Positions 1 through 45,410 of a stretch of DNA of 64,000 nt are shown in pieces. The notes under the pieces are model-generated. The model was not told the origin of the DNA. It did no database searches and saw only the letters and a program-made list of their open reading frames with translations. This DNA is from a plasmid, in NCBI RefSeq assembly GCF_056746865.1, contig NZ_JBWKMP010000003.1. One strand, 5' to 3'. A program made the position numbers and the translations under genes. Position 1 is the first letter of the stretch; every line of letters begins with the position of its first letter.

Positions 1-99
1 AAGATAGAAGCTCAATTACGAAAGGAGCAGCGTCAGTTGGTGGCGATGACTAACCAGCTATGGAACGCCGCTGTGAAAAAACGTGAGGCTTCCCTATGA
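1..99 (+). CDS. 3' end of an upstream gene (C-terminal fragment, function unknown)
   Basis: Frame is open from the window edge (...KIEAQLRKEQRQLVAMTNQLWNAAVKKREASL*). Its TGA stop overlaps the ATG of the next gene (ATGA), implying translational coupling. Confidence 0.35.
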   Translation, partial: KIEAQLRKEQRQLVAMTNQLWNAAVKKREASL

Positions 100-1460
100 C
101 GTTAATTAACTGGGAAGCGCATCGAGCTAAGTTCCTGGAGTTAAGAGAAGAAACCGGGATCACCATAAAAGAATATTGCGAGCAGCATGACCTCAGCTTT
201 AACACCGCCAGAAAGCATCTCAATATGAAAAAAAATGAGGTTAAGGCGAAAGCTAAGGCTACCGGGAAAAGTACAAAACAGCGCGCAAAAAGCAGCGCCA
301 CCGGCTCAAAAAAAGAGCAAAAAAAGGCTAATAAAAGCACAGAATTTACAAAAACTGACAAATCGTTGGCTGGTGGACGGTTCCGCGCCATGCCGCAAAA
401 ACAAAATGCGGATCACAAAGAAAAGCCAAGTAATAACAACAAGATACACAAGGATGTGAAGGGATCATTTTGTGATGAAATGGGAGAAATGATCCCTAAA
501 AGCAGCGATAAAGCCCAACGAAACAAGGGATCATTGCAAATGATCCCTGATTCATCAGCTCAAAGCACCACTTTGCCTGCCACCAACGTCGCCCGTGAGA
601 TGATGAAGAACGGCGCGACTGAACATTTACGACTTGCGATACAGATGGCGCAGGAACGAGCAATTCAGTATCAGGCTATCGTTGACCAGGAAGCGGAGCG
701 ACTACAGGAAGAGATTGACGCCCTCGGTGATACACAGCCAGAGGGGATGCACCCAGGGCAGCGTCTTCTCGGACTGATCAGCGATGCGGCCTACTACATG
801 AATGACTTTATCACCAGGCTGGCAGCCATCTATCAGAACGAGCAGAAGCTACGCCAGGGGGATGAAAAACTTGCGCAGGGCGCGCGTCAGCAGGCATTCA
901 GGGAGGCTGAGGCCAGAGAAAAACTGGCGATTGCCCGCCTACAAGCCGAGCAGCGTGGCAAGGAGATTGAGTATCGCATTGGCGCTGACGCACGCGCCGC
1001 CAGGGTTATCGCCGCCGCTATACGTATGCGTGAGCGCGAGGAGCTGGATGATATAGGTGTTGCTGAATATATCGAGCGGCAGGGCGTCAGTGTCCCGGCT
1101 ATCCTGGCGGCACGAGCGGCAAAAGCGATCTCACTTCTGGAGCCTCCGGTTTCTGACGTTAACGATGTTGATGATGAGCAACTGGATAAAGAGGCGAAGC
1201 AGTTTGCCGAGCAACAAGCTGGACTCCCACAATGGCTTGCACAACGCCGGGCTGAAGTAGCGAAAATCGTTGATAGGCTTGGGATGGGGGATTACGACCG
1301 GAACGGAGAACGTAAAGCCGGTGAATTTGAGGCCAATGATGAAGACCTGAATATAGACCCTTCCGCGACGGCTGATATCTACGGTGATTATGACGCGGGG
1401 GATACCGGTTTTGATGCTGTAGATGACGAGATTGCGATAGACCAGCCGGAGGATGACTAA
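96..1460 (+). CDS. pacA: terminase small subunit-like DNA-recognition protein (P1 PacA-like)
   Basis: 454 aa. N-terminal HTH-like stretch (ITIKEYCEQHDLSFNTARKHL), a Lys-rich linker and an acidic C-terminus. Stop overlaps the start of the terminase large subunit (TAATGG). GATC-rich inverted repeats sit in its 5' third, as for pac inside P1 pacA. Confidence 0.55.
   Translation: MTLINWEAHRAKFLELREETGITIKEYCEQHDLSFNTARKHLNMKKNEVKAKAKATGKSTKQRAKSSATGSKKEQKKANKSTEFTKTDKSLAGGRFRAMPQKQNADHKEKPSNNNKIHKDVKGSFCDEMGEMIPKSSDKAQRNKGSLQMIPDSSAQSTTLPATNVAREMMKNGATEHLRLAIQMAQERAIQYQAIVDQEAERLQEEIDALGDTQPEGMHPGQRLLGLISDAAYYMNDFITRLAAIYQNEQKLRQGDEKLAQGARQQAFREAEAREKLAIARLQAEQRGKEIEYRIGADARAARVIAAAIRMREREELDDIGVAEYIERQGVSVPAILAARAAKAISLLEPPVSDVNDVDDEQLDKEAKQFAEQQAGLPQWLAQRRAEVAKIVDRLGMGDYDRNGERKAGEFEANDEDLNIDPSATADIYGDYDAGDTGFDAVDDEIAIDQPEDD
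461..548. other. candidate pac (packaging initiation) site: two inverted pairs of AGGGATCATT / AATGATCCCT, giving 4 GATC Dam sites
   Basis: GATC at 464, 491, 529 and 542. Each pair is a perfect 10-bp inverted repeat, with spacers of 17 and 3 nt. The repeats lie inside the pacA-like ORF, matching P1 pac architecture (clustered TGATCA/G hexamers within pacA). Confidence 0.4.
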
Positions 1461-2968
1461 TGGCTGGTGGTCGTAAGATTAAGTGCGTCACCAGTGATCC
1501 ACGTTGGCGCGATATGGTTATCAGGTATCGATACAACTTTACCCAGGCGGTTGTCGATATTTTTGGGATGTTCCCCTCCCACCAGCAGCAGCAGATCATT
1601 CAGTCAGTGCAGGAGACGGGGAGCAGGACGACCGTTACGTCCGGACACGGAACGGGTAAGTCGTCCCTTACCGCGATGTTGCTACTAATTTTTATGATCC
1701 TGTTCCCCGACGCCCGCGTCATTATTGTTGCGAACAAAATAGGCCAGGTAAAAACAGGCGTATTCAAATACGTGAAACAGTTTTGGGCGAATGCTGTTAA
1801 GCGCCACGGCTGGTTACAGACCTATTTTGTCCTGTCTGACACCATGTTTTATGAGCGTTCCCGTAAAGGGATATGGGAAGTGCTCTGTAAAGGTTATCGA
1901 CTCGGTAACGAAGAGGCACTGGCGGGGGAGCACGCGGAGCATTTACTGCTAATCCTTGATGAAGCATCGGGCATATCCGATAAGGCGATTAACGTCATGA
2001 CGGGGGCGTTAACGCAGAAAGATAACCGTATGCTCATGCTTTCCCAGCCTACGCGTCCAAGCGGTTACTTTTATGAATCTCACCATTCAAGGGCAAAGGC
2101 AGAAGGCAATCCGGAAGGTGTCTGGACGGCAATAGTCCTTAACTCTGAAGAATCACCATTCGTTGAACCGAGCTTTATTCGTGAGAAATTGCTGGAGTAC
2201 GGCGGCAGGGATTCGCTGGAGTACATGGTTAAGGTGCTGGGCCAGTTCCCGCGTGCAATTAACGGGTATTTGCTTGGTCGTGATGAGTGCGACCGCGCCG
2301 CACGGCGTAAAGTGTTGCTGGAGAAAGATTGGGGCTGGGTAGCGACCGCTGACGTCGGTAATGGTCGCGATAAATCGGTGCTCAATATATGCAAAGTATC
2401 CGGTTATCGTGAGAAACGACGCGTTGTGAACTTTAAGATACTGGAGATGCCAGGCACTATGGACCCGTTGGCTTTTGCCGACTTTATCTATAACGAATGC
2501 ACTCCTGATAAATACCCGAACATCACCATTGCTGTGGATGCTGATGGCTTTGGTTCAGATACGTGTGCGCAGCTTGTCCGCCGTGGTGCTAATCCCGTTC
2601 GCATCCGTTGGGGTAAGCCTATGTTTGCGCTAAGAGACAGAGAACGCTTTGTCAATCAGCGTGCTTACGCCAATATTATGGCAGGGGATGCCATTAAATC
2701 CGGGCGTATGCGTATCGATAGTGACCCCAAAACCGCAGATCAGGCATCAAAAATCCCGTATATGCTTAACGAAGAAGGGAAGGTAGCGATGATGCGCAAG
2801 GAGCACATGCGGCAGAAGTTAAACATCAAGTCACCGGACAGATGGGATACCTACTGCTTCACTATGCTGGTGGATTACGTGCCTGCTAATGAAGACATTG
2901 GCGCAGAACTCGCAACATTCCGCGATCAGGTGTTGGCAGAAGTGGATATTCCTGATATTGACATTTAA
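1460..2968 (+). CDS. pacB: terminase large subunit (ATPase plus RNase H-like nuclease; P1 PacB-like)
   Basis: 502 aa. Walker A-like VTSGHGTGKSS and Walker B LLLILDEAS. C-terminal nuclease-type acidic motifs ATADVGNGRD and IAVDADGFGS. Translationally coupled to the upstream TerS-like gene. Confidence 0.8.
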   Translation: MAGGRKIKCVTSDPRWRDMVIRYRYNFTQAVVDIFGMFPSHQQQQIIQSVQETGSRTTVTSGHGTGKSSLTAMLLLIFMILFPDARVIIVANKIGQVKTGVFKYVKQFWANAVKRHGWLQTYFVLSDTMFYERSRKGIWEVLCKGYRLGNEEALAGEHAEHLLLILDEASGISDKAINVMTGALTQKDNRMLMLSQPTRPSGYFYESHHSRAKAEGNPEGVWTAIVLNSEESPFVEPSFIREKLLEYGGRDSLEYMVKVLGQFPRAINGYLLGRDECDRAARRKVLLEKDWGWVATADVGNGRDKSVLNICKVSGYREKRRVVNFKILEMPGTMDPLAFADFIYNECTPDKYPNITIAVDADGFGSDTCAQLVRRGANPVRIRWGKPMFALRDRERFVNQRAYANIMAGDAIKSGRMRIDSDPKTADQASKIPYMLNEEGKVAMMRKEHMRQKLNIKSPDRWDTYCFTMLVDYVPANEDIGAELATFRDQVLAEVDIPDIDI

Positions 2969-4044: not shown

Positions 4045-4057
4045 ATTCCTACTCGAT

Positions 4058-4075
4058 TTAGTTTTCTAACATAAA
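4058..4075. promoter_or_regulatory. operator-like motif copy (TTTTCTAACA core) upstream of the minus-strand repressor candidate
   Basis: One of about 14 copies of the core ATTTTCTAACA found across 10 intergenic sites. Confidence 0.4.
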
Positions 4076-4238: not shown

Positions 4239-4272
4239 CTAACTTTAAATAATTGGCATTATTTAAAGTTAG
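4239..4272. other. lox-like recombination site (34 bp: 13-bp inverted arms CTAACTTTAAATA, 8-bp spacer ATTGGCAT)
   Basis: Perfect inverted arms (15+4+15, or 13+8+13 in loxP layout). The arm matches the loxP arm ATAACTTCGTATA at 9/13 positions. Sits 150 bp upstream of the Cre gene, as loxP does in P1. Confidence 0.6.
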
Positions 4273-4423
4273 GCTATAATCTCCAGTAAACAGGCAGTAT
4301 TGACAAGGATGAAAAATCATGCCTCGAATCAAAGGCTTGAATTTTGAAAATTAACTTATAACTACCCTGTCAGTTTTCTATTTTTCACGTAGCGTTATCT
4401 GTATATAGAGGTTTAATAGTTTC

Positions 4424-5452
4424 ATGGGTGAACTAGTTATCTCCGGCGGTTCTGGTGGTTTTCTGCGCGATATTGGCACCGAATACCAGGAAGCTGCAAA
4501 AAACTTTATGCAGTTCATGAACGACCAGGGAGCTTATGCTCCAAATACGCTTCGAGATCTCCGTCTGGTGTTTCATTCCTGGGCGCGGTGGTGTAATTCG
4601 CGCCAGCGCCCCTGGTTCCCGATTACGCCGGAAATGGCCCGCGAGTATCTTCTCCAGTTGCATGAGGCCGATCTGGCCTCGACCACCATTGATAAGCACT
4701 ATGCCATGCTTAACATGCTGCTTTCGCAATGTGGCCTCCCGCCGCTGTCGGACGATAAAAGTGTGTCTCTGGCCATGCGGCGCATCCGGCGCGAAGCGGC
4801 AACGGAAAAAGGCGAGCGAACAGGCCAGGCTATACCGTTGCGGTGGGATGATCTGAAATTGCTCGACGTGTTGCTGTCCCGTTCCGAGCGGCTGGTGGAC
4901 CTGCGCAATCGGGCGTTTCTCTTCGTGGCATACAATACCCTGATGCGTATGTCAGAAATCTCGCGCATCCGCGTCGGAGATCTGGACCAAACAGGTGACA
5001 CTGTAACGCTGCATATTTCACACACGAAGACCATCACGACCGCCGCCGGACTTGATAAGGTGCTTTCTCGTTACACTACCGCCGTACTGAACGACTGGCT
5101 GGAGGTGTCCGGACTTCGAGAACATCCGGACGCGGTGCTATTCCCGCCAATACACCGCAGTAATAAGGCCAGAATCACGACAACGCCCCTTACTGCACCT
5201 GCAATGGAGAAAATATTCAGCGATGCCTGGGGGTTGCTGAACAAACGAGATGCCACGCCGAACAAAGGAAGATACCGGACGTGGACAGGCCATAGTGCGC
5301 GTGTTGGTGCGGCAATTGATATGGCTGAGAAACAGGTGTCAATGGTCGAGATCATGCAGGAAGGTACATGGAAAAAGCCCGAAACACTTATGCGATATTT
5401 GCGCCGTAGCGGGGCATCCGTTGGTGCAAATAGTCGCCTGATGGACTCATAA
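4424..5452 (+). CDS. cre: Cre-family tyrosine site-specific recombinase
   Basis: 342 aa. Long collinear matches to P1 Cre: LAMRRIRRE, RNRAFLFVAYNTLMRMSEISRIRVGDL, HISHTKT, WTGHSARVGAAIDMA, IMQEGTWKKPETLMRYLR. Catalytic R..HxxR..Y pattern is present. Confidence 0.9.
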   Translation: MGELVISGGSGGFLRDIGTEYQEAAKNFMQFMNDQGAYAPNTLRDLRLVFHSWARWCNSRQRPWFPITPEMAREYLLQLHEADLASTTIDKHYAMLNMLLSQCGLPPLSDDKSVSLAMRRIRREAATEKGERTGQAIPLRWDDLKLLDVLLSRSERLVDLRNRAFLFVAYNTLMRMSEISRIRVGDLDQTGDTVTLHISHTKTITTAAGLDKVLSRYTTAVLNDWLEVSGLREHPDAVLFPPIHRSNKARITTTPLTAPAMEKIFSDAWGLLNKRDATPNKGRYRTWTGHSARVGAAIDMAEKQVSMVEIMQEGTWKKPETLMRYLRRSGASVGANSRLMDS

Positions 5453-5468
5453 ATTAATTTTCTAACAA
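5452..5468. promoter_or_regulatory. operator-like motif copy (TTAATTTTCTAACAACC) just after the cre stop
   Basis: Near-identical to the copy after ref (25208..25229). Confidence 0.4.
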
Positions 5469-5498
5469 CCTTTTTAGACAGTGCATTTTAATGTAAAG

Positions 5499-5528
5499 TA
5501 CCCTCGCCTATTGCGGAGGGTACTTTGC
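5499..5528 (+). terminator. hairpin GTACCCTCGCCTATTGCGGAGGGTAC followed by TTTG
   Basis: 10-bp stem downstream of cre; the U-tract is short. Confidence 0.4.
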
Positions 5529-5869
5529 ACAATCGTATTACGGAATCAAAACGCTTCACTGTTGACGGTTACACCATAACCTTCACTGCGGGCGTTAAGC
5601 GCGACCAGGCGGTCGTGGTGTTCGGTGTTATGACCGGACTTGATGCCGTTCCCGTATTTACCCTCGAAAAAAACTGGCGAAATCTGGAGGAAGCTGAACG
5701 CTACGTCCGGAAAGTAACCGTCATTGCTGCTGAAAAACTCCTGGCCCACTATCAGGAAAATTATCGCGCTATGACCGAGAAAATTAACCATGTTTTCACT
5801 CGCCCCACCAGCGGCTTCATTGCCCCTGATGCGAATGCCGGGCGCTATCCGGCAAGGGGGCGCAAATGA
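5525..5869 (+). CDS. hypothetical protein (start uncertain)
   Basis: 114-aa ORF, first gene of a six-gene operon with 4-nt overlaps between genes. No recognisable motif. Confidence 0.4.
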   Translation: MHNRITESKRFTVDGYTITFTAGVKRDQAVVVFGVMTGLDAVPVFTLEKNWRNLEEAERYVRKVTVIAAEKLLAHYQENYRAMTEKINHVFTRPTSGFIAPDANAGRYPARGRK

Positions 5870-6354
5870 AAACTTACTACCCATCCCTGAACTGTTATCC
5901 AACCACTAATCCTGAGCTGTCAGGGAAACTTCTGTCCCTCCTGGCTGATAGTCCTGATGAATGGCATAAGCCTGGTGATATCAACACACAGTTCCCTGAG
6001 TACGGGTGTATCCGCACCCGAAATGAGCTGAAGAACCTCATTGCTCACGGTTTTGTCCGTCACCGTAGCGGGAAAGGCTATCAGTTGGCTATCCCACAAG
6101 GAGAGGCAAGAGAACTCTTTGGCTATCGAGAAAGCCAGACGCAAGCGCGGGTGATCGCAGAAATTATCCGTAATGGCAGCGTCTATGCCCGCAAATTCTG
6201 GCTGTCTGGCGGTGGTGATGCATCACAGTTCTTGCGTGCTGTGCGATCGCTGGAGGAACAAGGTGTTATCGAGAATACCTGCGTCTCCGTTCCGACCGCT
6301 CCGCATATCAAACGCCGGATTTATACATTTACCCGGAGAGCTAAAAAGCAATGA
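5866..6354 (+). CDS. hypothetical protein, possible winged-helix fold
   Basis: 162 aa. ATGA overlap with both the upstream and downstream gene. Confidence 0.5.
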   Translation: MKTYYPSLNCYPTTNPELSGKLLSLLADSPDEWHKPGDINTQFPEYGCIRTRNELKNLIAHGFVRHRSGKGYQLAIPQGEARELFGYRESQTQARVIAEIIRNGSVYARKFWLSGGGDASQFLRAVRSLEEQGVIENTCVSVPTAPHIKRRIYTFTRRAKKQ

Positions 6355-6845
6355 TTAACGTGAAAGTGAAACGCCTTCATCCGGCGGCAAAACTCCCCGT
6401 TTACGCCACCGCCGGATCGGCGGCGATGGATTTTGTTGCTGTTGAAATAACGCCGGGTATCGATAGCAACGGCGCTATTTCCTCAAGCTGGTGGGTGCAT
6501 ACCGGCCTCGCTATGGCGATCCCTCCTGGCTGGTGTCTGAAACTTTATCCTCGTTCCGGATTGGGCTGCAAAAAGCATACGCGCCTGGCTAACTGCGTAG
6601 GAATTATCGACTCCGATTATCGCGGTGAAATCAAAGCAAAACTGATTACAGATCCCGGTGGTGAAGGCGTTTGCCTCAAGCCAGGAATGGCGGTCATGCA
6701 AGGCATTTTTGAGCGTGTTGAACCGGTATCGCTGGTAGAAGTTGATGAACTCGATGAAACAGAGCGAGGTGCTGGTGGCTTTGGTAGCACATCGGAAGAC
6801 CGCATTGAAATCAAGCGTACACCGCTTCAGTACGCAAAGTTTTAA
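6351..6845 (+). CDS. dut: dUTPase (trimeric dUTP diphosphatase)
   Basis: 164 aa with the five dUTPase motifs in order: AGSAAMD, PRSGLG, GIIDSDYRGE, and C-terminal GxGGFGSTS. Confidence 0.85.
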   Translation: MINVKVKRLHPAAKLPVYATAGSAAMDFVAVEITPGIDSNGAISSSWWVHTGLAMAIPPGWCLKLYPRSGLGCKKHTRLANCVGIIDSDYRGEIKAKLITDPGGEGVCLKPGMAVMQGIFERVEPVSLVEVDELDETERGAGGFGSTSEDRIEIKRTPLQYAKF

Positions 6846-6859
6846 GTAGAGGAAAGGCT

Positions 6860-7510
6860 ATGAATAACATGCCAACGAAAGAGCTTTTTAAGTTCCTTCC
6901 CAAATACAAAGCTCACAAAAACGTTAGTGCATCGAAAATTAAAAATGTTGTTATTTTCGGAGTAACTGATGCCCCACTTTGGGGCTGCATCGAACTCGTT
7001 GAACCAAAAGGGGCAACAGTTTGTGTTGACGCAATGTTTTTACAAAAACACCGACCAAAAACTGGCGGGTATCTGATCGTTTATGAAAACGGTTATCTGT
7101 TCTATGCCCCGGAGAAACCATTTGAGGAATGCTATGGCCTGGTTAACGACGCCTCCAAAAATGGAACCACGGTCATCATTACGGATGACAACGGCGTGAT
7201 GATTAATCTTACTGGGAGCGTAACTATTTCTGCTGGTGGCATCACCACCCAGCAAGAAGAAATCGACCTTGAAGCAGCCGACTTCTCTGATGCGCTAATG
7301 TGGTTGAAGGAAGGCAAGAAAGTTGCCCGACGCGAGTGGAAAGGCGAAAAGCAATTCTGCTGGTTAGTTCTCGCTGGAAGCGTCAATTTACACGGCATTC
7401 ACGTTCCTTATGGTGACCATTTTGTATTGAAAGATGCACAAAATATGGACAGCGTTTGGTTGCCGTCTGTGGATGATTTACTGGCCTGTGACTGGTTTGT
7501 TGTGGAGTGA
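6860..7510 (+). CDS. hypothetical protein with a C-terminal DUF2829-like domain
   Basis: 216 aa. C-terminus FSDALMWLKEGKKVARREWKG...WLPSVDDLLACDWFVVE resembles the phage DUF2829 signature. Confidence 0.5.
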   Translation: MNNMPTKELFKFLPKYKAHKNVSASKIKNVVIFGVTDAPLWGCIELVEPKGATVCVDAMFLQKHRPKTGGYLIVYENGYLFYAPEKPFEECYGLVNDASKNGTTVIITDDNGVMINLTGSVTISAGGITTQQEEIDLEAADFSDALMWLKEGKKVARREWKGEKQFCWLVLAGSVNLHGIHVPYGDHFVLKDAQNMDSVWLPSVDDLLACDWFVVE

Positions 7511-7516
7511 TTTAAC

Positions 7517-8323
7517 GTGGAAAATACCAAGAACATTCAATATCGCTTGCGTAACGGCCTGCTGGTGGATGTAAACGATGATATGTCCCTGCCCTTTGCC
7601 ACCATTGAGCGAACCATCCTTACATACCTGGGCTTAGACGAAGAGTTAGATAGTGAGAATGGCATTGCTATCTGGCGTGACGGAAAAACGGGAGTCAGAC
7701 GTTTTATTACGGCAAGAGGCATTCAGTGCACACAGGAAGAATTGTTTGAACTGGCGCAGTCTTATGGATGCATCGCGTTAGATCCCCTGTATGACCCAGC
7801 CATAGCACAACAACTCATTCGAGAGCTGTCGCTTTCGGTCACGCCAATAATCTTCCGCCAGGGAACCTTAACCGGCACATGGCGTGTAGAACGCATCTCT
7901 AAATATCAGCCATATAATATCCATTTGAACGGCACTATTACTGGTGTGGATCAACCAGTAGCAGGTGAAAACAAAGACCTGGAACTTGCAGTAATGATGG
8001 CAGCTTGTCGCGTGCTTGGCCTGGGCAAGCAGATGTTTATCCATTTCCCAAACGGCGCGGAAGGCGAAGTAGAGCTGATTTCCTGCGACTTTTCCTTAAC
8101 CTGGATGCTTGATGAATTCCTGGACAAAACAGTATTCCGTGCTGAAGAACTGGATATGTATGTCACCTCAAGTATTCCTAATGACGTGAAAGTTGAGGCC
8201 ATCGCTACAGCCAGGGCGAAATGCCGTGCGGCGATTGCAGAACAGGCCAAAGAAGAACAGTCCGATGAAGTCGCGGCAGATGTGGAGGCAGAGGTAGCGG
8301 AGGATGCTGATGCTGACGCCTAA
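7517..8323 (+). CDS. hypothetical protein (GTG start, acidic C-terminus)
   Basis: 268 aa. Stop overlaps the start of the TerL-like paralogue by 20 nt. Confidence 0.5.
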   Translation: MENTKNIQYRLRNGLLVDVNDDMSLPFATIERTILTYLGLDEELDSENGIAIWRDGKTGVRRFITARGIQCTQEELFELAQSYGCIALDPLYDPAIAQQLIRELSLSVTPIIFRQGTLTGTWRVERISKYQPYNIHLNGTITGVDQPVAGENKDLELAVMMAACRVLGLGKQMFIHFPNGAEGEVELISCDFSLTWMLDEFLDKTVFRAEELDMYVTSSIPNDVKVEAIATARAKCRAAIAEQAKEEQSDEVAADVEAEVAEDADADA

Positions 8324-9410
8324 AAACATCACCGAATTACCAGAGTGGAGAGAGCTGGTAAGCAAATATAGCCATGACTGGGCATTAGCAGCAGAAGAGT
8401 TGATGGGTGTTAAGTTAACCCACCAGCAAAAGCTAATTGTTGAGGCGATTCAACAAAAAGGTTCAGCAGTCAGCGTCACCACTCCTGAAGGGATAGGCCA
8501 AAAGACGGTTATCGCTATAATTAGTATTCTTTATACAATCCTGATGCCTGAGTCTAAAACGGTTATTGTTTCCCCAAAGTTCTATAATTGTCGCAGGCAA
8601 GTTATCCAATACATAAGTACGTATTGGGATAGAGTCAGTAACAGAATCCCATTGCTGGGAGAATATTTTAAAGTCGACGGAAACGGCATCAATCATCGTT
8701 ACCGGGAATATTGGGGCTGCGAAATTAAGCCATATCACCGAAATTATGAGGAAGGTTTCGGTGGATATTATGCTGAACATCTTTTAATCATTGTTACGGA
8801 GGCGGCTCTTGCTGGCGATCGGCTATTCAGCATGTTAAGAGCATCGTTAGTAAGTGACGATTCACGTATACTTTTAATGTCCGCTCCTTCAGAGGAGGAG
8901 CATGGACACTTTTACGATTCCCATCATGGTCGTGCAAAATCAGAAGAAAATCCATGTGGTATTTATACAGCCATCAAGCTGAACGCAGAAGATACCCCCA
9001 TTATTTCACAAGGTTATCTTGATAACATTGCAGAAATATATGGTGGTAAAAACAGCGATTACTACCGTCGCATGATTCTTGGTGAGTTTCCAGGTATTAG
9101 GGAGGCTGTTCTTGAATCAGATATGCCGAAAACAATGCGCTTTTCGATGCCTGATGGTAGTGAATGGATAATGCCATTACGAGTGATAGCCCGGCATCAT
9201 GCACAGCACCACGCCAAAAAACATGGCGTTACAACATTGGAGTGGTTGAAATCGCACACCATTCCACTCTTCACTGCAGATCACAATGCTATCGTTGAGT
9301 GGGCAAAAACAATTCCGTGGGAGAATGTCGCTGAATACGCCCACATGCTAAAACCGCCGAAAGACAGGCAAGAAATTAGCTGGCTGACAGCAGAAAAAAT
9401 CATTGAGTGA
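8304..9410 (+). CDS. degenerate paralogue of the terminase large-subunit ATPase domain (no nuclease domain)
   Basis: 368 aa, collinear with residues ~40-300 of the pacB product. HQQKLIVEAIQQKGSAVSVTTPEGIGQKT aligns to HQQQQIIQSVQETGSRTTVTSGHGTGKSS, and YYAEHLLIIVTEAALAG aligns to EHAEHLLLILDEASGIS. The Walker A lysine is displaced (GQKT) and the Walker B Asp is replaced by Thr. The C-terminal 120 aa are unrelated to the nuclease domain. Confidence 0.7.
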   Translation: MLMLTPKNITELPEWRELVSKYSHDWALAAEELMGVKLTHQQKLIVEAIQQKGSAVSVTTPEGIGQKTVIAIISILYTILMPESKTVIVSPKFYNCRRQVIQYISTYWDRVSNRIPLLGEYFKVDGNGINHRYREYWGCEIKPYHRNYEEGFGGYYAEHLLIIVTEAALAGDRLFSMLRASLVSDDSRILLMSAPSEEEHGHFYDSHHGRAKSEENPCGIYTAIKLNAEDTPIISQGYLDNIAEIYGGKNSDYYRRMILGEFPGIREAVLESDMPKTMRFSMPDGSEWIMPLRVIARHHAQHHAKKHGVTTLEWLKSHTIPLFTADHNAIVEWAKTIPWENVAEYAHMLKPPKDRQEISWLTAEKIIE

Positions 9411-9445
9411 TAGTAGGAAGCCCGCCTGGTTGAGCGGGCTTCTTT

Positions 9446-9826
9446 TCAAATATTGGAACCATATAGTTCACGTAGTTTATCCGCTACTGAAGATACGGGG
9501 ATTTCACCAGTTGCAGCCCCCACCGCAAGTTCCACCAGCACGGGAGAATCATATACCTGTATACCGTTACGGCGTAGAAATAGCAGCGCACTGTTTAGCG
9601 CGGTACGCTTATTGGCATCATTGAATATATGCCCTCTCGCTGTAGCCACCAGGTAGGTGGCGGAGACTTCGAAAAGGTCGGTGATCTCTTCGTAGGCAAC
9701 TCTGGCCTGAACTCTCCCGATAATGGCCTCTGCCCTGCCCGGATCTGACATGCCAGGCAGGCCGCCGTAGCGGCTTATATTCGCATCATGAAGCGCAATA
9801 AGTTCTTCCGGTGATATATGCCTCAT
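9446..9826 (-). CDS. doc: Doc toxin (Fic/Doc family), P1 death-on-curing
   Basis: 126 aa, essentially identical over its length to P1 Doc as remembered ([39 protein letters not shown]...). Confidence 0.95.
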
Positions 9827-10053
9827 TATCGGTTAACCAGTTCCTTGTTGGTGGAGTCCAGGGTGTCAAACAGGGATGCAAATTCAGCATCCAGCGCCGC
9901 TTTTTTGTAGGCTTCGAAAGTAGCCTTGCTGACAATTACTGCTGGCTCACGGCCTCTGCGGGTGATTTCAACCTCTTCCCCGGCTTCAACATTGTTGAGC
10001 ACTTCAGAAAGGTTGCCACGCGCGGTACGGAAGTTAATGGATTGCATAAACAC
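9826..10053 (-). CDS. phd: Phd antitoxin
   Basis: 73 aa beginning [39 protein letters not shown], matching P1 Phd. Stop and start overlap with doc. Confidence 0.95.
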
Positions 10054-10119
10054 CTCGTGTACTCGTTATGTGTACACAATTATAAACTTCACAGGCATAA
10101 AGCACCAGCACTTTGCAGC

Positions 10120-10509
10120 TTAAATAACCGGACAATCATCAAATTCCCCACTTCGGGCATCATTGATGACATGAGTGATCACACCAAAAACAGCATTACT
10201 GCCCGTGTATCCATCGTCATCTACTGGTAACGCCTCTTTCTTCCCGGTGCTTAAGTCCTCCAGGTGCTGGCGCGGATACTTCCTGTATCTCTTTATGCGA
10301 TATTCACCCTCCATAGCGCACACAAGCAGAGAACCATCAACCGGAGTAAGCGAGGAATCAACCACCAGCAAAGCACCCTGCAATATTCCCTCACGGTGAT
10401 GGCTATCAGCTGCCCGCATGAAGTAGGTCGCTGAAGGATGTCTAATTATCTGCTGATCAAGAGAAATTCGGCTTTCAACATAATCCGCCGCAGGAGAAGG
10501 GAAGCCCAT
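10120..10509 (-). CDS. humD: UmuD'-like S24 peptidase-fold protein (P1 HumD)
   Basis: 129 aa with a LexA/UmuD C-terminal domain (catalytic Ser/Lys spacing) and no N-terminal cleavage arm. humD-phd-doc order is as in P1. Confidence 0.8.
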   Translation of the reverse strand: MGFPSPAADYVESRISLDQQIIRHPSATYFMRAADSHHREGILQGALLVVDSSLTPVDGSLLVCAMEGEYRIKRYRKYPRQHLEDLSTGKKEALPVDDDGYTGSNAVFGVITHVINDARSGEFDDCPVI

Positions 10510-10632
10510 AGCGTTTTACCTCAATGATACTGTTTATTCATACAGTATACATTGAAAAGGCATAGTTTGTGAAAGCGGGGTTTGTAGGCGCGCCACGCTG
10601 GGGGCTAATCACATTTCTCCCCCATCTTGCCG

Positions 10633-19489: not shown

Positions 19490-19519
19490 TGTTAGAAAAT
19501 TAAAATCAATATTCTAACA
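19490..19519. promoter_or_regulatory. operator-like inverted pair TGTTAGAAAAT...ATTCTAACA
   Basis: Intergenic, between the phosphatase and the DUF968 gene. Confidence 0.45.
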
Positions 19520-24564: not shown

Positions 24565-24596
24565 GTGTTAGAAAATCAATTTTGATTTTCTAACAC
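24565..24596. promoter_or_regulatory. 32-bp near-perfect palindromic operator GTGTTAGAAAATCAATTTTGATTTTCTAACAC in a divergent promoter region
   Basis: 15+2+15 palindrome built from two copies of the dispersed TGTTAGAAAAT motif. Lies between the leftward accessory operon and ref. Confidence 0.55.
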
Positions 24597-24640: not shown

Positions 24641-25216
24641 ATGAAGCAAAGCTATTGGGAGAAACAGACACAAAAAGCCCTGCAAAAACTGGCTGATCCG
24701 AAATGGCGGGAGGAACAAAGGGCAAAGCGTCTTCAGCAAGCTCAACGCCAGCAGCAGCGTGCGCGAGAAAAAGCCGCATCGCCTGAATATCGGCAAAAGA
24801 AAATTGAAAAAGCGAAGCAATATGAACAGCGAAGAAAAGAGAAGGCCGCTTCTGCTCCTGTCAAAAAAACTCGCGCGTCACGCGGCCTGAAAGGCAGAAC
24901 ACTCACAGCAGATGAGCGCCGGATACAAACTGCCATCGGTGCTCTCCCCTGCATTGCCTGCCATATGCACGGACAGCATAGCCCTGTGGTATCCCTGCAC
25001 CACATCTTCGGGAGAACAGCAGAAAACGCGCATAAATACGTCCTCCCTTTGTGTAAATGGCACCATCAACACGCAGCGCCAGCAGAGATCCGCGAGCAAT
25101 ACCCCTGGTTGGTTCCTGTTCATGCTGATGGAAAAATAGGCGGCAAAGCAGATTTCAGGCGGCACAATGCTGATGAAATGACGTTGTATCAGATGGTGAC
25201 TGAATTAATAAATTAA
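24641..25216 (+). CDS. ref: Ref-like HNH endonuclease (P1 recombination enhancement function type)
   Basis: 191 aa from MKQSYWEK (a TTG-initiated extension is also possible). Highly basic, disordered N-terminus. C-terminal Zn/HNH-like pattern LPCIACHMHGQH...LHHIFGR...CKWHHQH. Located downstream of the operator, in a P1-like context. Confidence 0.5.
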   Translation: MKQSYWEKQTQKALQKLADPKWREEQRAKRLQQAQRQQQRAREKAASPEYRQKKIEKAKQYEQRRKEKAASAPVKKTRASRGLKGRTLTADERRIQTAIGALPCIACHMHGQHSPVVSLHHIFGRTAENAHKYVLPLCKWHHQHAAPAEIREQYPWLVPVHADGKIGGKADFRRHNADEMTLYQMVTELIN

Positions 25217-25229
25217 TTTTCTAACATTT
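25208..25229. promoter_or_regulatory. operator-like motif copy (TAAATTAATTTTCTAACATTTT)
   Basis: Near-identical to the copy after cre. Confidence 0.4.
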
Positions 25230-35911: not shown

Positions 35912-35956
35912 CAAAACTGTGTTAGATAATTGAGTTTTATTTTCTAACACAGTTTT
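35912..35956. promoter_or_regulatory. 15-bp perfect inverted repeat CAAAACTGTGTTAGA...TCTAACACAGTTTTG carrying the TCTAACA operator motif
   Basis: 15-nt spacer; sits directly upstream of rdgC. Confidence 0.45.
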
Positions 35957-45330: not shown

Positions 45331-45410
45331 TGTTCTAATGTTTTATGTTAGAAAATTAAGATTAAACCATACTAACACAAGATTGTTAACGAAAATTATT
45401 TTTCTAATGC
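45331..45410. promoter_or_regulatory. cluster of four operator-like half-sites (TGTTCTAATG, TGTTAGAAAATTAA, CTAACAC, ATTTTTCTAATGC) in a divergent promoter region
   Basis: Same core motif as the other dispersed sites. Lies upstream of the head-protein candidate. Confidence 0.4.

Follow-up and report, generated by a model that had tools for sequence, protein, structure and literature searches.

The stretch analysed here, referred to below as the window, comprises 64,000 nucleotides of plasmid DNA from contig NZ_JBWKMP010000003.1 (NCBI RefSeq assembly GCF_056746865.1) and represents a D6-like phage-plasmid of the rox/Dre type, not P1. The gene in question is the last of a six-gene operon, termed gene 6 (8304..9410), which encodes a catalytically dead relative of the ATPase domain of the element's own terminase large subunit (TerL), PacB, joined to a small C-terminal domain. 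Region 4300..9700 shows 82% identity to Escherichia phage D6 and 82-99% identity to dozens of E. coli and Salmonella plasmids. An earlier note on this DNA had read the upstream recombination locus as lox-cre; the recombinase is instead Dre (dre, 4424..5452, a tyrosine recombinase recognized by Pfam Phage_integrase and by its match to D6 dre/orf118), whose recombination target, the rox site, was read at 4240..4271 and corresponds to the D6 site annotated 'rox site'. The packaging genes pacA-pacB occupy 96..2968, apart from gene 6, and pacB itself (1460..2968; phrog_2 match, E 4e-41) retains intact Walker A (GTGKSS) and Walker B (ILDEAS) motifs. Apart from the rox site, to which no strand is assigned, the features described here from pacB to the operon terminator lie on the plus strand.

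The six open reading frames have the coordinates given in the earlier note. Gene 1 (5525..5869; phrog_1968) and gene 2 (5866..6354; phrog_6669) are homologues of D6 orf117 and orf116, both of unknown function, and gene 3 is dut (6351..6845), encoding a trimeric dUTPase (PF00692; TIGR00576 117 bits, cutoff 102.55). Gene 4 (6860..7510; PF11195, E 2.8e-18) encodes a Tad2-family (DUF2829) protein with a variable N-terminal extension. Gene 5 (7517..8323; phrog_2326) encodes a homologue of P1 IsaA (47% identity, E 2e-85), so that the previous listing of a dUTPase, a DUF2829-like protein and three unknowns holds for the first two but not for all three of the rest. Translational coupling by overlaps of 4-20 nt had also been proposed; three junctions do overlap (by 4, 4 and 20 nt), whereas the other two are gaps of 14 and 6 nt. 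Genes 1-5 match D6 one-to-one (orf117, orf116, dut or orf115, the DUF2829 protein orf114 and the isaA-like orf113) and therefore belong to the conserved backbone of the D6-like lineage. Gene 6 consists of an N-terminal pseudo-ATPase domain (8304..9095) with the PacB/TerL ATPase fold and a C-terminal domain of ~100 aa (9096..9410) that belongs to a mostly stand-alone family with no known fold. Its start is likelier to be the second ATG, at 8310, since a GGAGG lies 6 nt upstream and the RefSeq product has 366 aa. The operon is closed by a strong intrinsic terminator, a hairpin (AAGCCCGC...GCGGGCTT) followed by a T-run at 9418..9446, which abuts the convergent doc gene and is also present in D6 and in a variant deleted for gene 6.

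The relationship of gene 6 to PacB is beyond reasonable doubt. Residues 7-263 align with PacB residues 8-264 at 33% identity and 59% positives with 2 gaps (BLASTP over 258 aa, E 1e-51), the sequence blocks quoted in the earlier note fall in register, and the similarity stops near residue 263. Where PacB has GTGKSS and ILDEAS, gene 6 has GIGQKT and IVTEAA, the same substitutions that had been pointed out before. They extend to the whole family: among 43 tabulated members, which span alleles at 98, 88, 83, 81, 65, 50 and 38% identity, GK[ST] never occurs in register and the Walker B Asp is always missing. The other Walker A alleles are GIGHKS, GIGRPQ, GIGETS, GVGTTT, GVGTKT and GTGTTT, and Walker B reads IVTEAA, IVAEAA, IVMDAA, IIVDSA, IVINSA, IVLNAS or IVPKAT. 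The Q-motif and the motif III serine are kept, the serine being lost only in a permuted variant (P0159), and several non-catalytic blocks are common to gene 6 and PacB (GxFYDSHH, GG[KR][ND]S..Y and LGxFP), as is the N-terminal helical region. Among full-length proteins, the N-domain comes closest to PacB proteins from the same phage group; identity to TerLs outside the P1-type PacB clade is 24-26%. Its isoelectric point (pI) is 5.9, compared with 9.2 for the PacB ATPase domain, which is weak evidence against DNA binding, as an outgroup TerL is also acidic.

Structure comparison agrees with the alignment. The AlphaFold model of gene 6 (predicted local distance difference test score, pLDDT, 82) matches the TerL ATPases of P74-26, T4 gp17 and Sf6 with Foldseek E values from 2e-8 to 1e-5. 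No RNase H-like nuclease domain was found in gene 6, and hhalign gave a probability of 0.2% for the tail family against the nuclease half of PacB. Replacement of the nuclease by an unrelated tail, as proposed in the earlier note, is thus borne out, with a length of ~104 aa in place of 120 aa; the 0.2% probability, together with the point at which the PacB alignment ends, excludes a degraded nuclease domain as the origin of the tail. As the whole family lacks both the nuclease domain and the catalytic Walker residues, a second functional terminase is likewise ruled out, and the prior conclusion that the gene encodes no terminase stands after formal alignment, Foldseek and motif inspection. It is therefore close to certain that gene 6 is a true paralogue of the PacB ATPase, a pseudo-enzyme without the P-loop lysine, the Walker B aspartate and the nuclease domain, whose product can be neither a motor nor a nuclease. 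The two-domain family corresponds to phrog_5902. Identities within it form a star-like matrix (31-75% among variants, 33-38% to PacB), from which alone a single origin of the pseudo-ATPase domain cannot be shown.

The tail domain has a wider distribution than its partner. A search with residues 262-368 of gene 6 against 1.8 billion representative proteins (E up to 1e-3) recovered 187 clusters, most of them proteins of 90-130 aa made solely of this domain, some with unrelated cysteine-rich or acidic extensions. In other phages the domain is fused to DUF1351 and to unrelated N-termini, and one homologue carries a Lar restriction-alleviation domain. No Pfam family and no sequence relative in the PDB was found for it. 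Its predicted model is confidently folded. The family is typically acidic (median pI 4.8), which makes DNA binding less likely. In the Klebsiella-type variant P0159 the order is reversed, the tail preceding a dead PacB-like domain (GSGTGTTT; SVIVPKAT), and fusion in both orders indicates that the tail and the pseudo-ATPase domain function together. The alignment of the tail family (window 9087-9407; P0010-P0157) gives the consensus MPDGSxWxVP...IAxxRA...EDTLPLF...DWAxNNMxWxDV...GWxNG with invariant tryptophans, and genes for the domain are usually located in arrays of small early-type genes.

Gene 6 is a dispensable accessory gene and the sole variable member of the operon. It is present neither in phage D6 nor in reference P1, and a plasmid 99.5% identical to the window carries a 1,039-bp internal deletion that spares only ~25 nt at the 5' end and ~43 nt at the 3' end of the gene. 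Full-length copies occur in ~163 PLSDB plasmids, compared with 457 plasmid records in which IsaA coverage reaches 80% or more (481 counting every match), so that roughly one third of IsaA-bearing plasmids carry it. The idea that the six genes together form a variable cargo consequently applies to gene 6, which comes and goes, but not to genes 1-5. Position is strongly conserved: the gene directly follows isaA in 36 of the 36 P1- and D6-type viral contigs with enough flank. The order in D6-like elements is dre-g1-g2-dut-Tad2-isaA-gene 6, and in P1-like elements ssb-(Tad2)-isaA-gene 6-hxr, adjoining the dar anti-restriction operon. The operon does not occupy the slot of the P1 cre-proximal island, as the earlier note had it, since its locus is D6-like rox-dre and P1-like elements carry isaA-gene 6 after ssb; nor does hxr belong to that island, given that P1 hxr adjoins isaB/ddrB. 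The isaA region is a known variable region of P1-like elements, and no PacB-like gene is described in the papers that report it (PMC6906374, PMC9603915). P1 IsaB was considered as a possible remnant of gene 6 and rejected, there being no similarity between them. Two distant variants lie in other phage-plasmid-like contigs, one (L008) after a DnaB/Ban-type helicase gene and the other (L009) near a RecA-dependent (Ref-like) nuclease gene. In these two unrelated contexts, Tad2-like genes are found within 8 kb of the gene 6 variant.

Pairwise comparison of plasmids revealed swapping of divergent alleles of the pseudo-ATPase domain. An allele at 65% identity matches the window at DNA identities of 0.55-0.62 in the pseudo-ATPase domain and 0.95-0.96 in the tail, with a mosaic breakpoint at the domain boundary. 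In one comparison with a near-identical backbone (synonymous divergence, dS, 0.01-0.05), replacement was confined to the Tad2-like gene (dS 0.78) and the gene 6 N-domain (dS 0.32). Conversely, a plasmid with a diverged backbone (dS 0.5-2.6) carries a virtually identical gene 6 (dS 0.03), a sign of horizontal transfer. The ratio of non-synonymous to synonymous divergence (dN/dS) is 0.45-0.51 for the N-domain, 0.32-0.38 for its Tad2-like counterpart in the comparison and 0-0.2 across the backbone, and the reading frame is intact in 39 of 39 viral-contig copies as well as in the ~163 plasmids. These values indicate that the N-domain is functional and under purifying selection, with relaxed or diversifying pressure relative to the backbone. 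The packaging proteins do not follow these changes. PacB is ~92% identical between plasmids whether their N-domains are 53% or 100% identical; PacA has a dN of 0.004 and PacB of 0 where the N-domain has 0.145; and gene 6 can be identical where PacA is 82% and PacB 92% identical. No covariation of gene 6 alleles with PacA, PacB or IsaA was detected in the pairwise plasmid comparisons, which argues against co-adaptation with any of the three, and the N-domain does not appear to be adapted to the element's own terminase. The Tad2-like gene behaves as a hypervariable cassette, the N-terminal part of which varies (versions of 146, 216, 220 and 233 aa, among those compared being window 6860-7510, L015 7061-7723 and L001 2594-3034).

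No site for the P1 C1 operator consensus occurs in the window. Instead, the 17-mer AAATTAATTTTCTAACA is found at 11 sites with at most 3 mismatches, against 0.26 expected, at 4055-4071, 5451-5467, 19490-19519, 24566-24595, 25210-25226, 35920-35949, 45346-45362 and 45393-45409. All sites are intergenic, and three are overlapping inverted pairs, as in the bivalent operators of P1, with whose C1 consensus the 17-mer shares 9 of 17 positions. One candidate operator copy (4055..4071) lies 12 nt upstream of the c1 ATG, in an autoregulatory position, and another (5451..5467), at the operon head, overlaps the stop codon of dre. Every D6-like locus examined keeps both of these copies (the operon-head copy in L001, L002, L004, L014, L015 and L016), and P1-like loci have neither. 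The P1-like loci have a classical operator ~36 nt upstream of ssb, annotated in P1 as the C1-controlled Ossb (Ossb/Op21). By this analogy, AAATTAATTTTCTAACA appears to be the equivalent, in the D6 lineage, of the P1 C1 operator and would define the C1 regulon of the element. As the gene 6 module stands behind a C1-type operator in both lineages, it is probably expressed early, under repressor control, and repressed in the lysogen. The text of the P1 transcriptome paper contains no timing data for isaA or ssb.

The neighbours of gene 6, which usually include a Tad2-family gene, add a link to anti-defence functions. The C-terminal domain of the gene 4 product scores 66.7 bits against PF11195 (cutoff 25), which places it in the Tad2 family, and it matches the solved Tad2 structures 9eib and 8v3e at E ~1e-10. 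By domain and structural homology, gene 4 can be assigned to the Tad2 anti-Thoeris family, whose biochemical hallmark is sequestration of the Thoeris signalling nucleotide gcADPR. A Tad2-type locus has been reported as anti-defence in P1/D6 elements (bioRxiv 10.1101/2025.09.12.675607). In a Klebsiella-type phage-plasmid contig (L009, 15418-16332), a dUTPase and a Tad2-like domain are fused into a single protein of 304 aa, suggesting that in the window, too, dut and its Tad2-like neighbour are linked in function. The IsaA homologue (7517-8323), for which no match was found among PDB sequences, has a net charge of -22, of which -11 falls in its last 30 residues (EEQSDEVAADVEAEVAEDADADA), an acidity reminiscent of DNA-mimic or SSB-tail-like proteins. 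P1 isaA is non-essential according to CRISPR interference (CRISPRi) (PMC10695390).

Several known systems resemble gene 6 in part. To PacB and other P1- and D6-like TerLs it is homologous over its N-terminal 260 aa (33-38% identity) with a common ATPase fold; apart from the catalytic losses described above, it differs from them in that it does not lie beside pacA, is under early control, is dispensable and evolves far faster. The nearest analogue is T4 vs.8, an uncharacterised stand-alone paralogue of the T4 terminase ATPase domain that is confined to a single phage lineage (PMC13601566). Like gene 6, vs.8 is an accessory copy of a terminase ATPase domain without nuclease and outside the packaging module. 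In contrast, vs.8, compared here by description only, keeps both Walker motifs and activates EcAvs2 (PMC13601566), whereas gene 6 has lost both motifs and has gained an additional C-terminal domain. With the Tad2-type anti-defence loci, gene 6 has in common the operon or module, a similar pattern of allele replacement and a raised dN/dS; it has no homology to Tad2 or to catalogued anti-defence proteins, and the association is one of position and evolutionary behaviour. A looser parallel is offered by Ppi of the Staphylococcus aureus pathogenicity islands (SaPI) and Rpp of the phage-inducible chromosomal islands (PICI), which are satellite-encoded proteins that bind the small terminase subunit to redirect or block packaging and are not TerL paralogues. 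The common concept is a non-enzymatic binder of a terminase component, yet gene 6 is phage-encoded and is itself a TerL paralogue. The literature searched yielded no description of an equivalent, in line with the earlier note, and the feature is real, well defined and undescribed.

What such a protein might do can be approached from its inability to catalyse. Gene 6 would act through binding: made early, before the real, late terminase, it would mimic the TerL ATPase domain and tie up a normal partner of TerL. The likeliest partner may be a host immune sensor of the TerL ATPase domain, of the Avs1-3 or Upx type. It has been demonstrated that the TerL ATPase domain alone triggers Avs2 and Upx, and that Avs2 and Avs3 read the active-site residues of TerL together with bound ATP (PMC13601566). 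A catalytically dead protein of the same fold could therefore bind such sensors without canonical triggering. The small fused tail might prevent productive activation of the sensor, serving as a general 'silencing' adaptor, and gene 6 would then be a counter-defence decoy or blocker that plugs or titrates terminase sensors. Conflict between phage and host is favoured over packaging housekeeping because of the early expression, the association with Tad2 and anti-restriction genes, the cassette-like diversification and the independence of PacA and PacB; the joint replacement of the Tad2-like gene and the gene 6 N-domain on an otherwise near-identical backbone is an arms-race pattern in line with this. 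A role in counter-defence in the general sense is tentatively preferred here, at a probability of roughly 0.3. The narrower proposal, a specific anti-Avs/Upx decoy that shields the late PacB and would be the first example of a pseudo-terminase mimic, must be regarded as quite speculative.

Several points weigh against a counter-defence role. Having lost its ATP site, the protein might no longer bind Avs2 and Avs3 at all, instead of binding them non-productively, and vs.8, the closest parallel, activates EcAvs2 and does not inhibit it (PMC13601566). The argument from neighbourhood is partly confounded, since all contexts are early regions of related phage-plasmids, which also carry replication and recombination genes (ssb, dnaB and a Ref-like nuclease), and the distant variants L008 and L009 have no isaA nearby. 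That the operators belong to C1 was inferred from their position, the motif statistics and the parallel with P1. A scan for sigma-70 promoters gave no strong one beside the operator at the operon head, and for this reason early repressor control stays an inference.

Among the alternatives, regulation of the element's own packaging would be the most direct use of a PacB-like domain. The dead domain would bind PacA (the pac-site or TerS-like protein), PacB or the portal and hold back pac cleavage and headful packaging, either by a dominant-negative effect or as a brake on their timing. The kinship of the N-domain with PacB proteins of the same phage group is compatible with this, and the N-terminal helical region and non-catalytic blocks kept in common with PacB could be subunit interfaces. 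On the other hand, gene 6 is dispensable for packaging, since D6 and reference P1 lack it, as do some two thirds of the relatives, and it is cleanly deleted in the 99.5%-identical plasmid. Allelic change in gene 6 does not track PacA or PacB, which argues against the packaging regulator that the earlier note had entertained, and the gene lies under an early C1-type operator away from the late pac genes. This explanation is accordingly unlikely.

Gene 6 could also be an early replication, recombination or host-takeover factor in which the terminase fold is re-used as a scaffold with IsaA, SSB or DnaB. Its location after ssb-isaA in P1-like elements, after the DnaB/Ban-type helicase gene in L008 and near the RecA-dependent nuclease gene in L009 would fit such a role, as would the fusion of the tail to DUF1351 and other unrelated N-termini. 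However, gene 6 does not covary with IsaA, and isaA is not near the distant variants; allelic diversification is unusual in early functions of a housekeeping type; and the near-neutral to acidic N-domain and the acidic tail speak against DNA binding, although charge is weak evidence. On balance an early factor of this kind is improbable as well.

A weapon between elements is a further conceivable function, in which gene 6 would disable the terminase, TerS or portal of rival phages or satellites during co-induction or superinfection exclusion. The rapid turnover and horizontal exchange of the N-domain and the patchy, accessory distribution of the gene are what such a weapon might display, and co-assembly of a terminase-like fold with foreign motors is plausible. 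The C1-type operator, however, predicts repression in the lysogen just when exclusion would be needed, none of the six operon proteins matches a model in PADLOC-DB 2.0 (E up to 0.01), and the N-domain resembles only the P1-type PacB clade, so that its targets would be close relatives already excluded by immunity or incompatibility. A weapon of this type seems a poor candidate. For similar reasons (no PADLOC match, probable repression in the lysogen and a Tad2-family companion), a novel defence cassette is the least favoured of the three roles that the earlier note had put forward; its decoy or dominant-negative terminase subunit is still a viable candidate. Finally, that gene 6 is a functionless, decaying pacB duplicate, as lost catalytic motifs and dispensability might imply, is effectively refuted by its conservation, with intact frames in all viral-contig copies and plasmids, dN/dS below 1, a nearly invariant tail, confident folded models for both domains and recurrence of the same two domains as a permuted fusion.

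The counter-defence reading would matter because TerL is the most conserved protein of tailed phages and a principal target of the immune sensors Avs1-3 and Upx. Gene 6, a conserved yet fast-evolving dead copy of the sensed domain that is carried by clinically common P1/D6 phage-plasmids, is a concrete candidate for a counter-measure to terminase sensing; none based on mimicry was found in the literature searched. Even if the decoy proposal is wrong, the analysis defines an uncharacterised two-domain family (phrog_5902) and a widespread domain of ~95 aa without known fold, and explains part of the isaA 'variable region' of P1-like elements.

Besides the candidate operators, the surroundings of the operon have further features. 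A stem-loop (GTACCCTC...GAGGGTAC) at 5498..5523, conserved in D6-like loci, carries the gene 1 ribosome-binding site (GGAGG) in its 3' arm, and a conserved, weak promoter-like pair (TTTAGA, 15 nt, TAAAGT; window 5471-5527) is found just upstream of it. Readthrough transcripts from dre would be expected to sequester the GGAGG in the stem-loop, whereas transcripts from the weak promoter would not, and the structure could in this way uncouple dre from the operon. Upstream of dre, a near-consensus sigma-70 promoter (4253-4280; TTGGCA, 16 nt, TATAAT; 11 of 12 matches) overlaps rox, so that recombinase binding and dre transcription may interfere with each other. On the other side, the position downstream of phd/doc appears to be a further variable slot adjoining the operon, occupied by a type I restriction-modification M subunit gene in the close relative CP085065 (L002 6880-8350) and by a humD-like gene in the window (9826-10600). 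Between isaA and doc, D6 has an additional pdcA-like gene that is missing from the window.

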